Shown here piece after piece: positions 3,617 through 24,000 of a DNA stretch of 24,000 nucleotides. The stretch comes from Paenibacillus athensensis (GTDB lineage: Bacteria > Bacillota > Bacilli > Paenibacillales > NBRC-103111), in assembly GCF_004514475.2 (NCBI RefSeq), contig NZ_MYFO02000011.1:47212-71211 (forward strand), written 5' to 3'. Below the pieces are notes generated by a model, which saw nothing but the letters and a program-made list of their open reading frames with translations, ran no database searches and was not told where the DNA came from. The translations under genes and the position numbers were made by a program. Within the stretch, counting starts at the first letter, position 1, and each line of letters starts with the position of its first letter.

Positions 3617-3833
3617 TTTTTTTTGCAAGAATAGAAAAGCTGAACTTCTGCCAAAAGCCGGCCAGCGCGCTTCGTCCCCTGCCGCGCAGCCGTTGTCCGC
3701 GGCAGCCGGTAAATATGTCCGTCCCCGTCCGTCAGGGCCAGTACTATTTGCGCCGCTCCGGCGATACATATAAATAGATCAGGCTGAACGCCTGTCTGCT
3801 CTTATCGATTTGAATGCAAAGGAGCCGCTGGTC

Positions 3834-5297
3834 ATGCCCCACTTTCGATTGTCCGATCGCTCTGTCTCCAAGTATAAAATCGCTGCGGCTCTGGCGCTGA
3901 TGCTAGCGCTGGGCAGCGGCGGCACACTCTATATTTACGGAACGGGAAGCAAGCTGCCTGCGCGCCTGCAGGTCGCCGACTGGCAAGCCGGCGGGTTGAC
4001 CTATGCGCAATTCCAAGCCCGGCTGGACGAGCAAATCAAGCTGTACAGCAGCATGAAGGTACGTCTGGCGTCACCGGACCCGCATGTGCCTGGCAAGGAG
4101 CTTTCGCTGGCCGAGCTCGGCTTGACCGTGCAGCGCGCAGAAGCCGATCAAGCGATCCAGACGCTGTTCCGCGCCCCGCTCAAGGATCGCATTGCCGCAA
4201 GGTGGACGCTTCGCCAAGCCCGGCTGCCGCTTCGTCTGTCTATCGACGCCGCCGCCCTGCAAGCCAAGCTGCCCCAGGTCTGGAAGGAGCTGTACGCGCA
4301 GCAGCCGGTTCCCGCGCAGCGAACCTTCGGAGCCGATGATTCCATTCATTATGTACCTGAGCAGCAGGTGCTGCGCATAGACGCCGCTGCGCTGCTCAAG
4401 GCGATTGAGGAGCAGCTGCCTGCTTTTAGCGGACAGTTGACCGGGGAACAAGCGTTGACCCTGACACTGCCGCTGGTCGCACAAAAACCCGCCGTTACCG
4501 TCGCCACCTTGCAGCAGCAGGGCATTGAACGTAAAATCTCTGAATTTACAACAACCTTCCCCGTATCCGGTCAAGGACGTATTCACAATATCCGCTCCAC
4601 GGCGGCCTCGATTCAGGACCTGCTGCTCGCTCCCGGAGAGACGTTCGATTACAGTAAAATCATCGCGCAAACCGAAACCCGATTCGGCTTTCAGGAAGCG
4701 CCGGTTATTTTGAACGGCAAGCTGGTGCCGGGAATCGGCGGCGGTATTTGCCAGGTATCTTCGACTTTGTATAACGCTGTGCTGCGCACGGGGCTGGAAA
4801 TCGTCGAGCGCCGCAATCATTCGCTGCCCGTCAGCTATGTGCCGCTGGGCCAGGATGCCACCTTTTCGACCGGCTATATCAATTTCAAATTCCGCAATAC
4901 GAGCGGCGCTTACCTGCTGATTCGCACGGTCACGACCGACCGCAATGTGACGGTCAAGCTGTTCGGCCGCATGCCGGCCGGTTTGAGCTACGATATCGAA
5001 TCGCATACCGTGGAGACCCTTGCTCCAACGGTGAAATATGTCCACAACCCTGCGCTGCGCCGCGGCGCCAGCGTCAAATTGAGCAGCGGCAAGCCCGGCT
5101 ATGTGGTCGAAACCTATCGAATCGTCAAAATGAACGGCATCGTTACCGGACGCGAGCTGATTTCCAAGGACCGCTACAGCGCCACGCCGTCGCTTATCGC
5201 CGTGAATCAGGGCCAGCCCGTTCCGGACAACGGCAGCGAACCCGGACCCGGGAAGCCGATTGTCGAAGACGGTCTCAAGGGGCCGGTGTTCCAGTAA
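3834..5297 (+). CDS. VanW/YoaR-family protein: N-terminal TM anchor, VanW domain and a C-terminal G5-like domain
   Basis: ORF 3810..5297. The preferred start is ATG 3834, 9 nt after AAGGAG. There is a TM helix (KIAAALALMLALGSGGTLYIY). The VanW core includes FDYSKIIAQTE..GFQEAPVI.NGKLVPGIGGGICQVSSTLYNAVLRTGLEIVERRNHS. The C-terminal segment GKPGYVVETYRIVKMNGIVTGRELISKDRYSATPSLIAVN resembles a G5 domain. Confidence 0.85.
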   Translation: MPHFRLSDRSVSKYKIAAALALMLALGSGGTLYIYGTGSKLPARLQVADWQAGGLTYAQFQARLDEQIKLYSSMKVRLASPDPHVPGKELSLAELGLTVQRAEADQAIQTLFRAPLKDRIAARWTLRQARLPLRLSIDAAALQAKLPQVWKELYAQQPVPAQRTFGADDSIHYVPEQQVLRIDAAALLKAIEEQLPAFSGQLTGEQALTLTLPLVAQKPAVTVATLQQQGIERKISEFTTTFPVSGQGRIHNIRSTAASIQDLLLAPGETFDYSKIIAQTETRFGFQEAPVILNGKLVPGIGGGICQVSSTLYNAVLRTGLEIVERRNHSLPVSYVPLGQDATFSTGYINFKFRNTSGAYLLIRTVTTDRNVTVKLFGRMPAGLSYDIESHTVETLAPTVKYVHNPALRRGASVKLSSGKPGYVVETYRIVKMNGIVTGRELISKDRYSATPSLIAVNQGQPVPDNGSEPGPGKPIVEDGLKGPVFQ

Positions 5298-5357
5298 ACG
5301 CCTCTGTGAACGCCGCCGCGCGCTAAAATGACACTCTACAACTGCATATGCAAGCTT

Positions 5358-5397
5358 ATGACAGGTCATATGACTCTAGATACTAGGTCACTATGAC
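5358..5397 (+). promoter_or_regulatory. Operator-like ATGAC/GTCA half-site repeats upstream of the DUF1700 gene
   Basis: The first unit is ATGAC-AG-GTCAT (5358-5369). It is followed directly by ATGAC-N12-GTCAC (5370-5391), whose spacer holds the nested inverted repeat CTAG-ATA-CTAG. A further ATGAC lies at 5393-5397. The repeats sit 60-100 nt upstream of ATG 5458. Confidence 0.35.
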
Positions 5398-5457
5398 TTT
5401 TTTCATTTATTCTAAGAACATGGAAGTCGAACACACGCCTTAAAGGAGGCACCGACC

Positions 5458-6255
5458 ATGAGCAAAGCTGATTATTTCAAAGAGCTGGCCTACCGGCTTC
5501 GCGGACTCCCCGAGCGGGAGCGTAATAATATAATTTCCGTCTACGAGGAGCTGTTCCAAAAAGCGATGGAGAACGGCAAGCAGGAGGAAGAGGTTGCCCG
5601 ATCGCTCGGCTATCCGCGCGTCCCCAATTGGGATAACGTGCGGGAACGCAGCGGCTACGACGAGCCGGCCCAGCCGGAGGATTCGCTGGCCCGGGAGTAC
5701 GCGCCGGTTCCCGGCTATGCACCCGCTCCCGATTATGAGCCCCTGCAGCCGCCGCCGGTGAGCGGCCATGCCCGGCCAGAAGCAGGCCCCCCTAACAAGG
5801 CGGCAGGCGCAAGCGCATATGAGCAAGCCACCTACACGGCCGGGCAAACGCCGCCCTATTATCCGCAGCGGCCGCAGCACCACGGCTACCCGCCGCCGCC
5901 GTACGATTATCCGTATCCCGCCAAACGCGAATCGGGCGGCAAGGCGATTATCGTGAGTATTGCCCTCGGCTTTTTTAACCTGCTGTTTGTCGTTGGGCCG
6001 TTCTTCGGTCTCGTCGGGGCGCTGCTCGGCCTGTTCGTCGGCGGCGTAGCGATGCTGCTAGCTCCTCTGGCGGCGGTAGCTGCAGGCTGGTGGATGAATC
6101 CGGCCGACGATCTGCGGCTGCTTTTCTTCTCGATGCTGGCTTGCTTCGGCCTCGGCATCCTGCTGACGTCGTTCTCTGTGTGGCTGATCAAAGGCTTCGG
6201 CAAATTGACCTGGAAATATGTGCAATTTAACGTGAAATTGATTCGGGGGGTGTGA
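5458..6255 (+). CDS. DUF1700 (HAAS-type) membrane protein with a Pro/Tyr-rich linker
   Basis: The RBS AAAGGAGG lies 8 nt upstream. The N-terminus MSKADYFKELAYRLRGLPERERNNIISVYEELFQKAMENGKQEEEVARSLGYP is the characteristic DUF1700 helical module. A low-complexity P/Y/A/Q linker of about 110 aa follows, then C-terminal TM helices (IIVSIALGFFNLLFVVGPFFGLVGALLGLFVGGVAMLLAPLAAVAAGWW...). Confidence 0.8.
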   Translation: MSKADYFKELAYRLRGLPERERNNIISVYEELFQKAMENGKQEEEVARSLGYPRVPNWDNVRERSGYDEPAQPEDSLAREYAPVPGYAPAPDYEPLQPPPVSGHARPEAGPPNKAAGASAYEQATYTAGQTPPYYPQRPQHHGYPPPPYDYPYPAKRESGGKAIIVSIALGFFNLLFVVGPFFGLVGALLGLFVGGVAMLLAPLAAVAAGWWMNPADDLRLLFFSMLACFGLGILLTSFSVWLIKGFGKLTWKYVQFNVKLIRGV

Positions 6256-6258
6256 TCG

Positions 6259-7134
6259 ATGAAGCTGACCATGAAATTCATATTGCTGCTGGGCGTCGCT
6301 TGTCTGGTCGTCGGGCTGATCGGCACGGCCGCCACGCTGAAGGATGTGGATTGGAACACCGCCGGCGTCGACATCGATCTGGAGAAAAAGCTGCCCGCTG
6401 CCGATATCCGGCGCTTCTCGATTGAAGCGGACACCACCCCGATTACGTTCCTGCCCAGCTCGACGGACGAGATTGTGATTCATTTGAAGGGCACGGTCTC
6501 CGAGCAGCAAGCGGAGTATGTAAACATCGACACGGACGGTAGCGGCGCTCAGGATGTGAAGGCTGTCATTCGCACGGATAAAAAATTCCATATCGGCATC
6601 AGCGTCGCCGATATCAAAAGCTGGATGAGCGATTACCGGCTGCGCGCTGAGGTCGAGCTGCCCGGCAAGCTGTACGACGAGCTGCGCGTCAAAACGGATA
6701 TCGGCTCCATTGAGCTGAACGACGTGAAGGCGCAGACGCTGATCGGTCAAACGAACACCGGCCGGATTCACGTCGGCCGCTTTGAGGGCCAATCGCTCCA
6801 GCTGCAGACGGACACAGGCGGCATTGAGGTGGAAGAAGCTACAGGCGACGTGCGCCTGCAAACCGACACCGGCTCGATCCGTGCCGGATTGCGCGACCCC
6901 GGCAAGACCATTAGCGCCAGCAGCGATATCGGCAGCATCGGGTTGCGTCTCCTGTCGCCGCTGGACTCGGCCAGCTTCGATTTGACGAGCGACATCGGCG
7001 GCATCGATTTCTCCGTACCGGGGGCAGCCGTAGACGAACGCGAACGCCATCGTCTGCACGGCACGCTCGGCGACGGCAGCGGCACGCATATCCGCGTGCA
7101 GACGGATACGGGGCATATTGAAGTGACGAAATAA
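6259..7134 (+). CDS. DUF4097 (Toastrack / putative adhesin) domain protein with an N-terminal TM anchor
   Basis: It starts 4 nt after the DUF1700 stop. There is an N-terminal TM segment (FILLLGVACLVVGLIGTAA). Beta-helix rungs recur with T/SD(T/I)G(S/G)I motifs (KTDIGSIEL, QTNTGRIHV, QTDTGGIEV, QTDTGSIRA, SSDIGSIGL, TSDIGGIDF, QTDTGHIEV). Confidence 0.8.
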   Translation: MKLTMKFILLLGVACLVVGLIGTAATLKDVDWNTAGVDIDLEKKLPAADIRRFSIEADTTPITFLPSSTDEIVIHLKGTVSEQQAEYVNIDTDGSGAQDVKAVIRTDKKFHIGISVADIKSWMSDYRLRAEVELPGKLYDELRVKTDIGSIELNDVKAQTLIGQTNTGRIHVGRFEGQSLQLQTDTGGIEVEEATGDVRLQTDTGSIRAGLRDPGKTISASSDIGSIGLRLLSPLDSASFDLTSDIGGIDFSVPGAAVDERERHRLHGTLGDGSGTHIRVQTDTGHIEVTK

Positions 7135-7146
7135 ACCGGCGAACCA

Positions 7147-7192
7147 AACAGGGCTGTCTCGCGAGGTAATATCCTCATGAGACAGCCCTGTT
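7147..7192. terminator. Long perfect hairpin between the convergent DUF4097 and argH genes (probable bidirectional terminator)
   Basis: AACAGGGCTGTCTC (7147-7160) pairs perfectly with GAGACAGCCCTGTT (7179-7192). The 18-nt loop can itself pair (GAGG/CCTC). The flanking U-tracts are weak on both strands. Confidence 0.55.
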
Positions 7193-7314
7193 CCTTAATA
7201 AATGTCGCAAACCAAACGCACGTCCGTTCACAGCAAGCGCCGCGCCGGCGGCCGAATGCTTTTTGCAGCGAACATGGATCAGAGGCTGACCGTCATCGGA
7301 CGGCTCCGCTCTCC

Positions 7315-16228: not shown

Positions 16229-16599
16229 TGCCTATTTTCCGCGATTTCTCGCGCGCACAGCCCAAAGAAATCAGCGCGGATTCAGCGAAGCTTCACGGCT
16301 TTTTCGGCATTCCGTCCATCGGTCTACCGTCTGTGCATCCCCCGCTCCTCTTGCATTTCCCCAAGGCCAATATACACTTTATGCAAAGAATTCTGCATAT
16401 TTATCCACTTGCTTTAAGAAGCCCGCCTTTGCTGAACAGCAGACGCACCCCCTCTATTATCCCAGATGAAGCGCCCTTTGGGCAAATCCAACTTTGACAG
16501 TTCGGCGAACGCCGGAGCCGTCCTTTCTGGTATCGCTTTCACAAAAGCTCGGGCTGCAACCCCGTGCTCCGGGCCTGCCCCTGCCAATCTTTCGCCCCT

Positions 16600-17874: not shown

Positions 17875-18980
17875 CCGTGCGGCGAATCTGCAGCCGCAGG
17901 TACGCATCGATGAACGCATCGAGATCGCCGTCCATCACAGCCCCGACATTGCCCGTCTCTTCGTTCGTTCTGTGATCCTTCACCATGCTGTACGGGTGAA
18001 ACACGTAGGAACGAATCTGGCTGCCCCAGGCAATGTCCGACACCTCGCCGCGAATTTCCGCCAGATGCTTCTCCTGCTCCTCGATTTTCTTCTCGTAGAG
18101 CTTGGAGCGCAGCATCTTCATCGCCCGTTCGCGGTTTTTGATCTGCGAGCGCTCGGTTTGGCAGCTCACCACCACGCCCGTCGGCATGTGCGTAATCCGC
18201 ACCGCCGAATCCGTCGTGTTGATGTGCTGGCCGCCAGCGCCGCTGGAACGATACGTGTCGACCTTGAGATCTTCGGTGCGGATCTCAATCTCCACGTCAT
18301 CGTCAATCTCCGGCATCACATCGCACGAGACGAACGACGTGTGCCGCCGGCCCGACGCATCGAAAGGGGAAATGCGCACCAGTCGATGCACGCCTTTTTC
18401 CGCCTTCAGATAGCCGTAAGCATTAAAGCCCTGAATGAGCAGCGTTACACTCTTCACGCCTGCTTCATCGCCGGGCAAATAGTCCAGCACCTCAACCTTG
18501 AAGCCGCGTTTCTCTGCCCAGCGCCGATACATCCGCAGCAGCAGCTCCGCCCAATCCTGCGACTCCGTGCCGCCCGCGCCCGGATGCAGCTCCAGAATCG
18601 CATTCAGCCGGTCGTACGGCTGGCTTAACAGCAGCTGCAGCTCGAACGCCTCCAGCCGCTTGATCAAGCCGGCGATTCCGCTGCCGATCTCGGCGGCCAT
18701 GCTGGCGTCGCCTTCTTCTTCAACCAGCTCGACCATGACCTGCAAGTCGTCGAACTCGCCGGACATCGCCTGAAACTGGTCGACGACGCCTTTGATCGCG
18801 TTAAGCTCGCCAATGGTCCGCTGGGCTTTTTCGTTGTCGTCCCAAAAATCGGGCGCCGACATTTTTTCCTCAAAATCTCCGATCGCTTCGAGCTTATGAT
18901 CTAAGTCAAAGAGACCCCCTTAATTCCGTTAATCGCTTTGCCGTCTCTCTTAAATCCTGTTTTACTTCCGGTTCCAACAT
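17867..18980 (-). CDS. prfB: Peptide chain release factor 2, expressed through a programmed +1 ribosomal frameshift
   Basis: Frame 0 runs from ATG 18980 for 24 codons ([24 protein letters not shown]) to the in-frame TGA at 18908-18906. Frame +1 resumes at GAC (18907) and joins ORF 17867..18862 (...[29 protein letters not shown]...). The SPF and GGQ motifs are present ([15 protein letters not shown]; [17 protein letters not shown]). Confidence 0.93.
18905..18920 (-). promoter_or_regulatory. prfB autoregulatory +1 frameshift site
   Basis: The minus strand reads AGGGGG TCT CTT TGA C. That is an internal Shine-Dalgarno-like AGGGGG (18920-18915), the slippery CTT, then a UGA followed by C. The E. 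coli site is AGGGGGTATCTTTGAC. Confidence 0.9.
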
Positions 18981-21985: not shown

Positions 21986-22540
21986 TTATTGCGCCGGCTC
22001 AATCAAACCGTACTTGCCATCGTCACGCTTGTACACCACGTTCACTTGATCCGTGTCCATGTTCGCAAAAACGAAAAACGAATGGCCAATCATATTCATC
22101 TGAAGGATCGCTTCCTCCACATCCATAGGCTTCAGATTAAAGCGCTTGGTGCGCACAAGTTCAAATTCATCTTCTTCGTCTACCACGGCCGTTGAAGCTC
22201 CCATAGCCTCCATACGGAACAAGTCCCGTTTGCCGCCTTCCTGACGAATTTTGCGGTTCGCTTTGGTTTTATGCTTGCGAATTTGGCGTTCCAGCTTGTC
22301 GATCACCAAATCCACCGAAGCGTACATGTCATTATTTCGCTCCTCCGCTCGGAGCATTACACCGGATAGCGGAATCGTCACCTCAATTGTTTGCAGCCCT
22401 TTCACTACGCTCAAGGTCACATGCACTTCAGAAGTAAGGGGAGCTTCAAAATACCTCTCTAGCCTGCTCAATTTTTTCTCAACGTAATCCCTGAGGGCTT
22501 CTGTCACTTCCAGGTGTTCTCCACGAATGCTAAAATTCAT
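21986..22540 (-). CDS. hpf: Ribosome hibernation promoting factor (long HPF, YvyD-type)
   Basis: 184 aa. MNFSIRGEHLEVTEALRDYVEKKLSRLERYFE... is followed by the C-terminal dimerisation domain (RTKRFNLKPMDVEEAILQMNMIGHSFFVFANMDTDQVNVVYKRDDGKYGLIEP). The RBS is GGGAGGAG. Confidence 0.94.
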   Translation of the reverse strand: MNFSIRGEHLEVTEALRDYVEKKLSRLERYFEAPLTSEVHVTLSVVKGLQTIEVTIPLSGVMLRAEERNNDMYASVDLVIDKLERQIRKHKTKANRKIRQEGGKRDLFRMEAMGASTAVVDEEDEFELVRTKRFNLKPMDVEEAILQMNMIGHSFFVFANMDTDQVNVVYKRDDGKYGLIEPAQ

Positions 22541-22573
22541 AGTACAACTCCTCCCTTCTCTTACAAGTATACT

Positions 22574-22602
22574 ACATTCAACGCTCCCTTCAAAATTCCT
22601 TT
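22574..22602 (-). promoter_or_regulatory. Sigma-H-type promoter candidate upstream of hpf
   Basis: The minus strand reads AAAGGAATT (22602-22594), an 11-nt spacer, then GTTGAATGT (22582-22574). The Bacillus sigma-H consensus is RnAGGAwWW-N11-12-RnnGAATww. The element lies about 35 nt upstream of the hpf ATG. Confidence 0.45.
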
Positions 22603-22624
22603 ATATTTGACCTACTTTTTCCCG

Positions 22625-22655
22625 AAAATAAAAACACCCCGACTTCTCGAGGTGT
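22625..22655 (-). terminator. Rho-independent terminator after the cold-shock gene
   Basis: The minus strand reads ACACCUCGA-GAAG-UCGGGGUGU, 9 bp including one G.U pair, followed by UUUUUAUUUU. Confidence 0.75.
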
Positions 22656-22689
22656 CCGTTCGTTCTATGCATGCGGCTTCCCGCGTGAA

Positions 22690-22893
22690 CTATTCGACTT
22701 TGGTTACATTGGCAGCCTGCGGACCGCGCGCGCCCTCTACAATATCAAATTCCACCTGCTGGCCTTCTTCCAGCGTTTTGTAGCCAGGAGCGTTAATGGC
22801 AGAGAAATGCACAAAAACGTCGCCCTGCTCAGTTTCAGGCTCAATAAAGCCATATCCTTTTTCTGCGTTAAACCATTTTACTCGACCCAGCAT
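22690..22893 (-). CDS. Cold-shock protein (CspA/CspB family, S1-like CSD)
   Basis: 67 aa. [33 protein letters not shown] carries the RNP1 (KGYGFI) and RNP2 (VFVHF) motifs. Confidence 0.96.
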
Positions 22894-22943
22894 TGCAACA
22901 CATTCCCTTCATCTTCAAATAAAATGTAAGCCCTTACCTTTCG

Positions 22944-22973
22944 AATATATCACCGTTCCGCTTGACCTGTCAA
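22944..22973 (-). promoter_or_regulatory. Sigma-A promoter candidate for the cold-shock gene
   Basis: The minus strand reads TTGACA (22973-22968), an 18-nt spacer, then TATATT (22949-22944). A TG lies one base upstream of the -10, giving TGATATATT. The element is about 50 nt upstream of the ATG. Confidence 0.55.
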
Positions 22974-23014
22974 TTTATCGGGCCCAAAAGAGGCCAAATA
23001 TTTAGAAAATTCGC

Positions 23015-23154
23015 GTATTCACATTTCCTTAACATTCACAAACCTCCCTGAAAGCTTGTTTTCATTAGTTATTCACAAAGATGTCCACATTATCCACAGT
23101 TCATTTTTTCTTTTATTCACAACTTTTTCCCCCTTATCCACCGAGTTATGCACA
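23015..23154 (+). promoter_or_regulatory. Cluster of eight co-oriented DnaA-box-like 9-mers
   Basis: The plus-strand boxes are GTATTCACA (23015), ACATTCACA (23032), TTATTCACA (23069), ATGTCCACA (23081), TTATCCACA (23090, perfect), TTATTCACA (23113), TTATCCACC (23134) and TTATGCACA (23146). Four of them match the relaxed consensus TTATNCACA exactly. Confidence 0.6.
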
Positions 23155-23175
23155 AACCGGCCCGGCATTTGCCAC

Positions 23176-23209
23176 AAAACAAAAAACCTTCCGCTGGTAC
23201 CGGAAGGTT
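23176..23209 (-). terminator. Rho-independent terminator after the fliS/fliT-like genes
   Basis: The minus strand reads AACCUUCCG-GUACCAG-CGGAAGGUU, a perfect 9-bp stem, followed by UUUUGUUUUG. Confidence 0.8.
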
Positions 23210-23224
23210 CTCGAAAACATCGAA

Positions 23225-23560
23225 TTATTTTTTCTTGTCAAAAAAGAAGCTTTCGCCGTCATAAGCATGATCGTAAGCGTTCCGCTGTGTTCGGCTGGTT
23301 TCGAATTTTTGCAATTGCTCTCTGGCCTCGCTGCGGAGCGCCTCCATTTTAGCCTTAAAGATCGGATCCTGGCGAAGCACCTCTTGAATTCTGCCGCGAT
23401 ACAACGCCTGCTGAGCCGTGGTCAGGGAAACAGAAGCAATGGAATTGATAATCGCTGCGCGGCTCTCCATAAACTCGCCCAATTGCTCGTAATCCATGTT
23501 GGGCAGCTGCTCGAGCCCTTGCCTCGTCAACTCCTCCAACCTTTGGATCAGGCTATCCAT
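23225..23560 (-). CDS. fliT: Small helical flagellar protein, FliT-like by position and size
   Basis: 111 aa and predicted all-helical (MDSLIQRLEELTRQGLEQL...). It overlaps the fliS stop by 8 nt. In B. subtilis the 113-aa fliT directly follows fliS. The call rests on synteny and size, not on a motif. Confidence 0.55.
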   Translation of the reverse strand: MDSLIQRLEELTRQGLEQLPNMDYEQLGEFMESRAAIINSIASVSLTTAQQALYRGRIQEVLRQDPIFKAKMEALRSEAREQLQKFETSRTQRNAYDHAYDGESFFFDKKK

Positions 23561-23957
23561 GTACTACACCGGCCTTGGACGGCGCCGCCGCATTAACCTG
23601 CTTGGCGGCTTGAACCCACGTCTCCTTGAGTTCGACCAAATAACCAAGCACCTCTTCAGCCGGCTCAACAGCCTTCTGAATGTTCGCTTCCATTAGCCTG
23701 CGATTGAAATAATCGTACAGCGAAAGCAGTCCGCTGGCCACCGGAGAGGATCGATCCAATGTAATCGAAAATTCGCTGACAATATCCTGCACTTTAACCA
23801 GATTCGTATTAGCTTCTTGGAAATTGTTGTTCTTCAACGCTTCAATGGCCAGACGGCAAAAACGGATACCACCGTCGCAAAGCATAATCAATAGCTGCGC
23901 TGGCGTAGCGGTCTGAACGGTAGACTCCAAATATTTATTGCGTTGCGGCTGTAGCAT
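23553..23957 (-). CDS. fliS: Flagellar export chaperone FliS
   Basis: 134 aa. Its sequence ...VQTATPAQLLIMLCDGGIRFCRLAIEALKNNNFQEANTNLVKVQDIVSEFSITLD...LYDYFNRRLMEANI... is the conserved FliS four-helix-bundle pattern. An AGGAGGG RBS lies upstream. Confidence 0.9.
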   Translation of the reverse strand: MLQPQRNKYLESTVQTATPAQLLIMLCDGGIRFCRLAIEALKNNNFQEANTNLVKVQDIVSEFSITLDRSSPVASGLLSLYDYFNRRLMEANIQKAVEPAEEVLGYLVELKETWVQAAKQVNAAAPSKAGVVHG

Positions 23958-24000
23958 GGATGTCCCTCCTAGTTTTAAATACGACCATCTTAGCCGAACT

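Follow-up and report, generated by a model that had tools for sequence, protein, structure and literature searches.

A conserved cluster of predicted DnaA boxes upstream of a cold-shock gene in Paenibacillus athensensis, with a matching core beside hpf in distant Firmicutes

A 24,000-nucleotide stretch of the Paenibacillus athensensis genome (contig NZ_MYFO02000011.1, positions 47,212 to 71,211; hereafter the window, with coordinates counted from its first base) carries a dense group of co-oriented DnaA boxes upstream of csp, which encodes a cold-shock-domain protein and is followed by hpf, the gene for a long-form hibernation-promoting factor (HPF). We think it likely, though by no means certain, that this group represents a Bacillus-type DnaA-box cluster (DBC), which would couple expression of csp, and perhaps of hpf, to DnaA and would also sequester DnaA. 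The parts of this reading, which come from comparing sequences, differ in strength: the group is very likely to be a DnaA-binding site under selection, modulation of the csp promoter is somewhat favoured, and a measurable effect on the initiation of replication is put forward more tentatively. The kind of element is already known; the csp/hpf-linked cluster itself is probably undescribed, as we found no paper in the open-access literature linking DnaA boxes to csp, hpf or yvyD. This agrees with a preliminary description, made from the sequence alone, whose author knew of no fliT/csp-linked cluster.

At the centre of the group lies a 30-bp core of three co-oriented boxes (23069-23098, + strand), which reads TGTGGATAATGTGGACATcttTGTGAATAA in the csp direction. 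Box 1 is the perfect 9-mer TTATCCACA (23090-23098, +); box 2, ATGTCCACA (23081-23089, +; two mismatches), abuts it, and box 3, TTATTCACA (23069-23077, +), follows after a 3-bp gap. To this core the window genome adds four co-oriented distal boxes and two degenerate promoter-side ones. The first distal box is another TTATTCACA (23113-23121, +), a match to TTATNCACA that is extra in the window genome and lies outside the conserved core. The next two, TTATCCACC (23134-23142) and TTATGCACA (23146-23154), form a pair separated by 3 bp (23134-23154, +) that looks like core boxes 2-3 repeated (TGTGCATAActcGGTGGATAA when read toward csp). The last, TTTGCCACA (23168-23176, +), is weak, with two mismatches, and lies 6 bp off the foot of the terminator of the fliT operon. 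On the promoter side stand GTATTCACA (23015-23023, +; two mismatches) and ACATTCACA (23032-23040, +; three mismatches). All were identified as 9-mer matches. The eight 9-mers listed in the preliminary description were thus recovered in place on the + strand, while the ninth, at 23168, had been missed; the spacing it gave for the boxes at 23069, 23090, 23113 and 23134 was exact (21, 23 and 21 bp).

Five + strand 9-mers within 23069-23154 are at most one mismatch away from TTATCCACA. The relaxed pattern TTATNCACA occurs four times in the 24 kb, each time inside the 86 bp of the cluster, against an expectation of 0.29 from 100 dinucleotide-preserving shuffles of the window, none of which (0/100) gave four matches; the earlier estimate of about one chance occurrence was therefore too high, the shuffles giving about 0.3. 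Elsewhere in the window, one-mismatch 9-mers are isolated: TTATCCACT at 16401, and others at 299, 1852, 5859, 16011 and 20916. The preliminary description had reported the 9-mer at 16401 as the only other good match, which holds in that the window has no other cluster, but five further lone one-mismatch 9-mers had escaped it.

The density of the boxes can be set against a published measure. Ishikawa et al. (2007) found that the eight in vivo DnaA sites of Bacillus subtilis, and only those, have A > 0.3 (range 0.36-1.64), where A is obtained by summing the affinities of four successive boxes and dividing by their mean gap, with affinities of 4 for TTATCCACA, 2, 1.5 or 1 for other fifth bases and 1 for one-mismatch boxes (PMC2533591); our reading of how distance enters A was verified on four rows of Table 2 of that paper (PMC2533591). 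In the window, A reaches 0.70 at 23090-23154 (boxes 23090, 23113, 23134 and 23146) and 0.51 at 23069-23142, and the highest value elsewhere is 0.01. The group therefore has the sequence-defined attributes of a DBC: four or more boxes in succession, each no further than one mismatch from TTATNCACA, with A > 0.3, an intergenic site outside the dnaA-dnaN origin, and boxes that are conserved while the flanking non-coding DNA is not. The preliminary description had proposed a cluster outside oriC that might titrate DnaA or bring csp under its control, an idea with which density (0.70 against the threshold of 0.3), conservation and spacing from csp all agree. It had also raised the prospect that many intergenic regions might be equally rich in boxes; no other region reaches the threshold, whether within the window or across roughly 680 kb of related loci. 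The lone TTATCCACT (16401-16409), which lies between a YitT-like gene and argC with no neighbouring boxes and an A value of 0.01, is probably due to chance.

Conservation in relatives was borne out. We scored A in 80 Paenibacillaceae loci anchored on HPF (about 8.5 kb each; loci are cited by L numbers), of which 73 were testable, L010 being excluded from scoring since its sequence ends 152 bp upstream of hpf. The closest HPF among the species representatives is 83% identical to that of the window. A exceeded 0.3 in 27/80 loci, was 0.28 in L022 and was at most 0.05 in the others. By this comparison the cluster is present in 28 of the 73 testable loci, upstream of csp or, in the csp-less L028, of hpf. 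In the 29 positive sequences the core aligns as cCTGTGGAyAATGTGsAtAACtnTGTknATAACt (window 23098-23069), is almost invariant and keeps one geometry: three co-oriented boxes, the gaps between them being 0 and 3 bp. The 12 bp just upstream of the core cannot be aligned and have an information content of 0.07-0.5 bits per position, whereas box positions reach 2.0 bits. Box 1 is the exact high-affinity consensus TTATCCACA in 18/29 sequences and TTGTCCACA in the others; the position corresponding to the N of the consensus carries 0.50 bits in box 2 and 0.10 bits in box 3, where TGT..A.A is invariant in 29/29. The regular expression used to locate boxes 1 and 2 had the TGTG.A.A skeleton built in, so that for these two boxes only the free positions are informative, whereas box 3 played no role in locating the core. 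Within the core, variation falls on the N of TTATNCACA and on position 3, known to be A or G (TTATCCACA versus TTGTCCACA); variation limited to positions that DnaA tolerates is the degeneracy expected under selection for DnaA binding. In a neighbour-joining tree of SecA all positive loci fall on one side and the 45 testable negatives form a single clade, so one gain or one loss suffices to explain the distribution.

An alternative interpretation is that the array is not a DnaA site at all, and that another DNA-binding protein, or chance or compositional repetition, accounts for it. A CodY-like box and a palindrome beside the core do indicate that other factors act in the region. We nevertheless consider this interpretation very improbable, because box 1 is the exact consensus in most positive sequences (18/29), variation is confined to positions that DnaA tolerates, the core pattern recovers a known DBC downstream of gcp when applied to metagenome contigs, and no shuffle in 100 matched the observed count. 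Chance and composition in particular were rejected on the shuffles, the A values of the other loci and the conserved box positions.

A second and smaller group of boxes was seen in L008 (Paenibacillus ferrarius; 970-1053), about 2.6 kb upstream of csp, where two perfect boxes 17 bp apart are accompanied by one one-mismatch box; with three boxes, its A is sub-threshold.

The cluster keeps a regular relation to the csp promoter. The latter is a near-consensus sigma-A promoter on the - strand (22944-22973), with a -35 element TTGACA (22973-22968), an 18-bp spacer and an extended -10 element TGaTATATT (22952-22944), an 11/12 consensus match with the additional TG; all relatives compared keep the -35 and the TGnTATAnT motif. 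The first base of box 1 is 146-149 bp away from the csp -35 in 21/28 loci, although the intervening sequence of about 115 bp has diverged between subclades and has only short motifs in common. The window spacing, 125 bp, is two helical turns shorter and in phase within 1 bp, which places the core on the same helical face, and L018, at 159 bp, has another length and a phase within 1.5 bp. The orientation of the core relative to csp is fixed in 28/28 loci. The negative clade retains the csp -35, the extended -10, the 5' untranslated region and the ribosome-binding site, and its sequence further upstream is wholly different. The DnaA boxes, the proximal box and an AT-rich element (22997-23011) are thus present or absent together, which argues that they make up one upstream regulatory module. 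The csp-less locus L028 (Chengkuizengella) has the core, the palindrome and the AT-rich element directly before the hpf promoter.

The preliminary description had placed the cluster between the fliT terminator and the csp promoter, a setting that the terminator, the promoter and the Pfam assignments all confirm. It had also put the boxes 45-185 bp upstream of the -35; their upstream position is correct, but the measured distances are 42-181 bp. The link to fliT that it suggested did not hold. The upstream gene is not fliT in L003, L006, L014-L018 and L023, where the cluster still stands in front of csp, which makes the fliT neighbourhood incidental: the cluster goes with csp, or with hpf where csp is absent. 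A role specific to fliT was rejected on this variation of the upstream gene among relatives.

The same loci bear on the idea that DnaA bound to the array serves as a roadblock or insulator that stops read-through from the flagellar operon into csp. The array begins 6 bp past the foot of the fliT terminator and its boxes all have one orientation, and Schaefer and Messer are said to have shown in 1988, for asnC, that Escherichia coli DnaA at a DnaA box can block elongating RNA polymerase in an orientation-dependent manner. We judge a roadblock highly unlikely, however, because the same geometry occurs where fliT is replaced upstream by another gene in a different arrangement (the eight loci just named), and because an apparently competent terminator (12-bp stem plus T-run) already lies upstream.

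The arrangement is compatible with the following mechanism for a cluster that acts on csp and on the DnaA pool. Several DnaA molecules would assemble cooperatively on the packed, co-oriented boxes, with the core at 23069-23098 as the nucleus. DnaA would nucleate on the perfect box and its abutting neighbours, as it does at other sites with closely spaced boxes, and oligomerise toward the low-affinity proximal box beside the AT-rich element. Recruitment of RNA polymerase at the csp promoter would be altered as a result, and csp transcription would follow the level of active DnaA, that is, the replication-initiation status; any read-through into hpf would follow DnaA too. The boxes span approximately -78 to -240 from the inferred csp transcription start, and a site lying entirely upstream of about -78 would suit an activator-like or architectural role rather than promoter occlusion, although we do not commit to a sign of regulation. 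The array would at the same time sequester DnaA and so damp initiation, as the DBCs of B. subtilis do. Those DBCs regulate neighbouring genes and restrain initiation, and reports exist of species-specific DBCs near oriC (PMC3245932). When six of the clusters are deleted, initiation occurs early, and a single cluster partly complements the defect, even at the terminus (PMC3245932).

The core is also found outside the Paenibacillaceae. Metagenome contigs were scanned with the core pattern TGTGGAYAATGTGNAYAANNNTGTNNATAA, which matched at least 120 contigs, and neighbouring genes were identified by clustering of open reading frames and Pfam; since the sample was picked by the pattern itself, it establishes recurrence in many lineages and carries no information on frequency. 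Among the matches listed, to which the following counts and ranges refer, hpf is the immediate neighbour met most often and in the greatest diversity, with at least 21 loci (L083, L095, L105, L109, L114, L120, L125, L131, L134, L138, L140, L142, L148, L152, L153, L158, L162, L172, L182, L187 and L190) that fall into at least 20 clusters at 90% and at least 14 at 70% HPF identity. These distant HPFs are only 40-55% identical to that of the window. The hpf-linked clusters have A values of 0.57-10. The distance from their three-box core, which lies upstream, to the hpf start is 114-782 bp and in most cases 200-340 bp, and the usual synteny is comFC-like/hpf/secA/prfB or fliS/hpf. Read in the hpf direction, the core is TTATNCACAnnnTTATCCACATTATCCACA in 21/21 listed loci, an orientation that is uniform and opposite to that in the Paenibacillaceae. 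Many of these clusters have facing boxes on the far side, as judged by eye, and the distant and Paenibacillaceae forms look like mirror images of one architecture. The element is therefore not confined to this locus type.

The second commonest neighbour among the matches listed is tsaD/gcp, with at least 10 loci in at least eight clusters at 70% identity; here the core lies 8-200 bp downstream of tsaD/gcp, often with lgt next (L087, L092, L093, L100, L104, L130, L151, L156, L171 and L176). A conserved cluster of DnaA boxes lying downstream of gcp has been described in Bacillus (Ishikawa et al. 2007, PMC2533591), so its recovery serves as a positive control that the pattern finds real DnaA-box clusters, and the gcp-downstream cluster extends to at least eight diverse lineages. 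Other listed neighbours of the core are NlpC/P60, V-ATPase subunit D (in a single species), Lgt, DUF1294, a solute-binding protein, GlyRS, a PHP protein and WecG. A tblastn search of all loci compared with an approximate B. subtilis DnaA query detected dnaA in L179 alone, where it lies 7.5 kb away from a match to the three-box pattern, which indicates that the core pattern is not mainly a signature of oriC in this sample. It is possible, if doubtful, that the window cluster represents, in the Paenibacillaceae, an undescribed type of DnaA-box cluster at the Firmicute hpf locus that is both old and widespread, and through which DnaA would tune HPF directly and, in the Paenibacillaceae, the cold-shock RNA chaperone encoded next to it as well; if so, translation shut-down and nucleic-acid chaperoning would both be coupled to replication-initiation status. 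The number and diversity of hpf loci compared with gcp loci among the matches listed, the uniform orientation to hpf and the module directly before hpf in L028 are compatible with this idea.

Three further features of the distant hpf loci were recorded. In L085, which is outside the 21, hpf is divergent from secA with the cluster between them, and the orientation to hpf is reversed; L144 was also noted with the hpf-linked group, besides the 21 and L085. The sequence CACAAAACAnnnGTTTTGTG follows the core in many of the distant clusters. A sigma-H-like motif, AGGATTT-14 nt-GAAT(A), was seen by eye 50-80 bp upstream of hpf in L083, L109, L114, L131, L144, L152 and L162, the DnaA boxes lying farther upstream still.

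We caution that the recurrence beside hpf would also suit a pure DnaA sink or positional element, which would titrate or inactivate DnaA or organise the origin-proximal chromosome domain with no specific effect on csp, the space before csp being simply an intergenic site where it is tolerated. The module persists before hpf in the csp-less L028, and the core adjoins hpf in at least 14 distant lineages (at 70% HPF identity) in the opposite orientation and at 114-782 bp; this variable geometry at hpf indicates that the locus is more conserved than the promoter geometry. In three relatives with records of about 8 Mb the cluster lies 108-134 kb from coordinate 1, and would be origin-proximal if the records start at dnaA. 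The phenotype of the six-cluster deletion in B. subtilis, partially rescued by one cluster at the terminus, points the same way (PMC3245932). We regard a pure sink as unlikely, though as a serious contender, because the distance to the -35 stays at 146-149 bp in 21/28 loci despite the diverged intervening sequence, the orientation is constant in all 28, and the cluster is gained or lost along with the rest of the csp upstream region.

Several of these observations nonetheless weigh against a cluster that acts on csp, and others should be set beside them. The helical phase is off by more than 2 bp in 4/28 loci (L023, 155 bp; L024, 89 bp; L025, 217 bp; L032, 134 bp), and part of the spacing conservation could be explained by the CodY-like box and the palindrome. 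The module is kept in L028 with no csp to regulate, and the distant hpf-linked cores, among the matches listed, have reversed orientation and variable distance; both observations suit titration at least as well as they suit control of one particular promoter. The -35, the -10 and the transcribed region are free of DnaA boxes, which leaves simple repression by occlusion unsupported. The 28 positives represent one inheritance kept over deep divergence, not 28 independent events. Finally, the genome-wide in vitro data for B. subtilis include no DnaA binding region at yvyD/fliT/secA (Smith and Grossman supplement).

Could the array instead be origin-like, as a secondary or relic origin or a DnaA-dependent unwinding site? 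Dense boxes, two of them abutting, do resemble Firmicute origin cores, but neither strand of 22894-23230 contains a run of at least three TAA/TAG triplets (DnaA-trios) or a relaxed 3-of-6 run, and no 30-bp stretch of the same interval reaches 80% A+T, the maximum being 73%. The window likewise lacks dnaA by tblastn with the approximate B. subtilis DnaA query, a search of it found no parS, and its GC skew is negative over the whole length and never switches sign, so that the - strand genes are co-directional with replication. Lacking DnaA-trios, an unwinding element and a neighbouring dnaA, the site is not an origin; an origin-like element seems to us extremely unlikely, and a replication origin or relic was rejected on the uniformly negative sequence tests for trios, an AT-rich element, skew and dnaA.

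The absence of dnaA from the window agrees with the preliminary description, which had placed the cluster far from dnaA and dnaN; on the genome scale, however, that statement is probably misleading. In records L016, L009 and L024, of about 8 Mb, the cluster lies on the + strand approximately 108, 116 and 134 kb, respectively, from coordinate 1, and in a fourth record, L003, it is at 0.87 Mb. In the first three records the cluster would be origin-proximal, as in B. subtilis, if they start at dnaA. The negative parS search adds no independent sign of origin proximity.

The closest known systems are the DBCs of B. subtilis. As there, the window cluster is an intergenic array of at least four close boxes with A > 0.3 (0.70 here, 0.36-1.64 there), is adjacent to a promoter, has lineage-specific conservation, may likewise be origin-proximal, and would be expected to play a dual role in regulating a neighbour and restraining initiation. 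Unlike there, DnaA binding is only predicted here, csp/hpf is outside the eight in vivo sites and the in vitro regions, and the core, with gaps of 0 and 3 bp, is fixed about 147 bp from the -35. DBCs are typically, but not obligatorily, origin-proximal, yqeG-sda being an exception. At B. subtilis sda, too, the boxes lie upstream of a sigma-A promoter and not over it, such that DnaA would act positively or architecturally; sda, however, encodes a sporulation checkpoint inhibitor whose regulation has been shown experimentally, whereas the predicted target here is a cold-shock-domain protein. Few genes make up the direct DnaA regulon of B. subtilis, among them dnaA, sda, ywlC, yydA and vpr; for this comparison we drew on a 2021 review and the Smith and Grossman supplement. 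Species-specific clusters near oriC had been predicted for other Bacillus species in 2007.

E. coli datA resembles the window site in having about five high-affinity boxes away from oriC and lowers the initiation-competent DnaA pool, but the sequences are not homologous and datA has no fixed distance to a promoter. It acts by IHF-dependent hydrolysis of DnaA-bound ATP, a gammaproteobacterial feature for which no Firmicute counterpart is defined; an IHF-type site would not be expected in a Firmicute. A Firmicute oriC core shares the abutting, co-oriented boxes, including a perfect consensus box, whereas the window site is without trios, an unwinding element, dnaA/dnaN nearby or a skew sign change. 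In Firmicutes, which have no SeqA or Hda, extra-origin DnaA-box clusters are thought to buffer the initiator, and they are also the route by which DnaA acts as a transcription factor. To our knowledge, only the B. subtilis set of clusters has been studied so far. Together, the cluster at the csp promoter and its recurrence at hpf would constitute a new class of candidate DnaA targets, an RNA/single-stranded DNA chaperone and a ribosome-hibernation factor, and suggest that the capacity to initiate replication is linked directly to translation and RNA metabolism. The Paenibacillaceae offer a natural experiment in this respect, as sister clades differ cleanly in the presence of the module.

Two other conserved elements lie between the core and the csp promoter. 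The AT-rich element AATATTTAGAAAATT (22997-23011), at about -74 to -58 from the inferred csp transcription start, recurs as gAATTTTCnAAatATTT in almost every cluster-positive relative, approximately 22-38 bp upstream of the csp -35, and is missing from the negative clade along with the DnaA boxes. With two mismatches to AATTTTCWGAAAATT it is CodY-box-like, and it is the sole match with at most two mismatches in the window; csp may therefore be under nutritional control of the CodY type, or the element may be UP-like. Abutting it, the weak box at 23023-23015 corresponds to a conserved TGTnnATAC (consensus ..TGT..AT Ac..gAATTTTC). Directly on the promoter side of the core lies the palindrome-like TGAAAGCTTGTTTTCA (23049-23064), conserved as aatgaaaacaagctttca in the window, L018, L023, L024, L025, L028 and L032 and replaced in other subclades. 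At the position of the palindrome, L011-L022 carry TGTCGAA, which is Spo0A-box-like, and then a GC-rich hairpin (aaaccgc...gcggttt). These sequences, like CACAAAACAnnnGTTTTGTG in the distant clusters, are candidate sites for partner factors.

The csp messenger RNA has a short hairpin, GTAAGGGCTTAC, at its inferred 5' end (approximately 22924-22935, - strand), and relatives carry other hairpin arms at the same place in the csp 5' untranslated region (GTGGGCATGCCCAC, GTGAGCG..GCTTGC). RNAalifold on 16 sequences gave only four pairs for this hairpin, with weak covariation. At gathering thresholds, Rfam returned no match in the window.

Every gene in 22500-24000 is on the - strand. Upstream of the cluster are fliS (23553-23957; Pfam FliS) and fliT (23225-23560; Pfam FliT), the operon ending in a terminator (23182-23212, -; 12-bp stem plus T-run) that forms the upstream bound of the cluster, and 290 bp of non-coding DNA separate this terminator from csp. 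The first gene downstream of the cluster is csp (22690-22893, -), which encodes a 67-amino-acid cold-shock-domain protein (Pfam CSD, E = 2e-31) and is followed by an intrinsic terminator (22632-22657, -). The next gene is hpf (21986-22540, -; Pfam Ribosomal_S30AE plus the C-terminal domain), and secA and then prfB lie downstream of it (Pfam SecA and PCRF/RF-1). The remainder of the window holds a YitT-like gene, argCJBDF, argG, argH, ftsE, ftsX and an M23 peptidase gene.

Away from the cluster, the interval 3700-7200 is G+C-rich (0.59) and has long overlapping open reading frames on both strands; three frames on the - strand (4071-5369, 5440-5883 and 5907-6437) gave no Pfam match. In prfB, a +1 programmed-frameshift site, AGGGGGTCTCTTTGAC (a Shine-Dalgarno-like sequence plus CUU UGA C; approximately 18895-18911, - strand), lies upstream of the 331-amino-acid RF2 frame.

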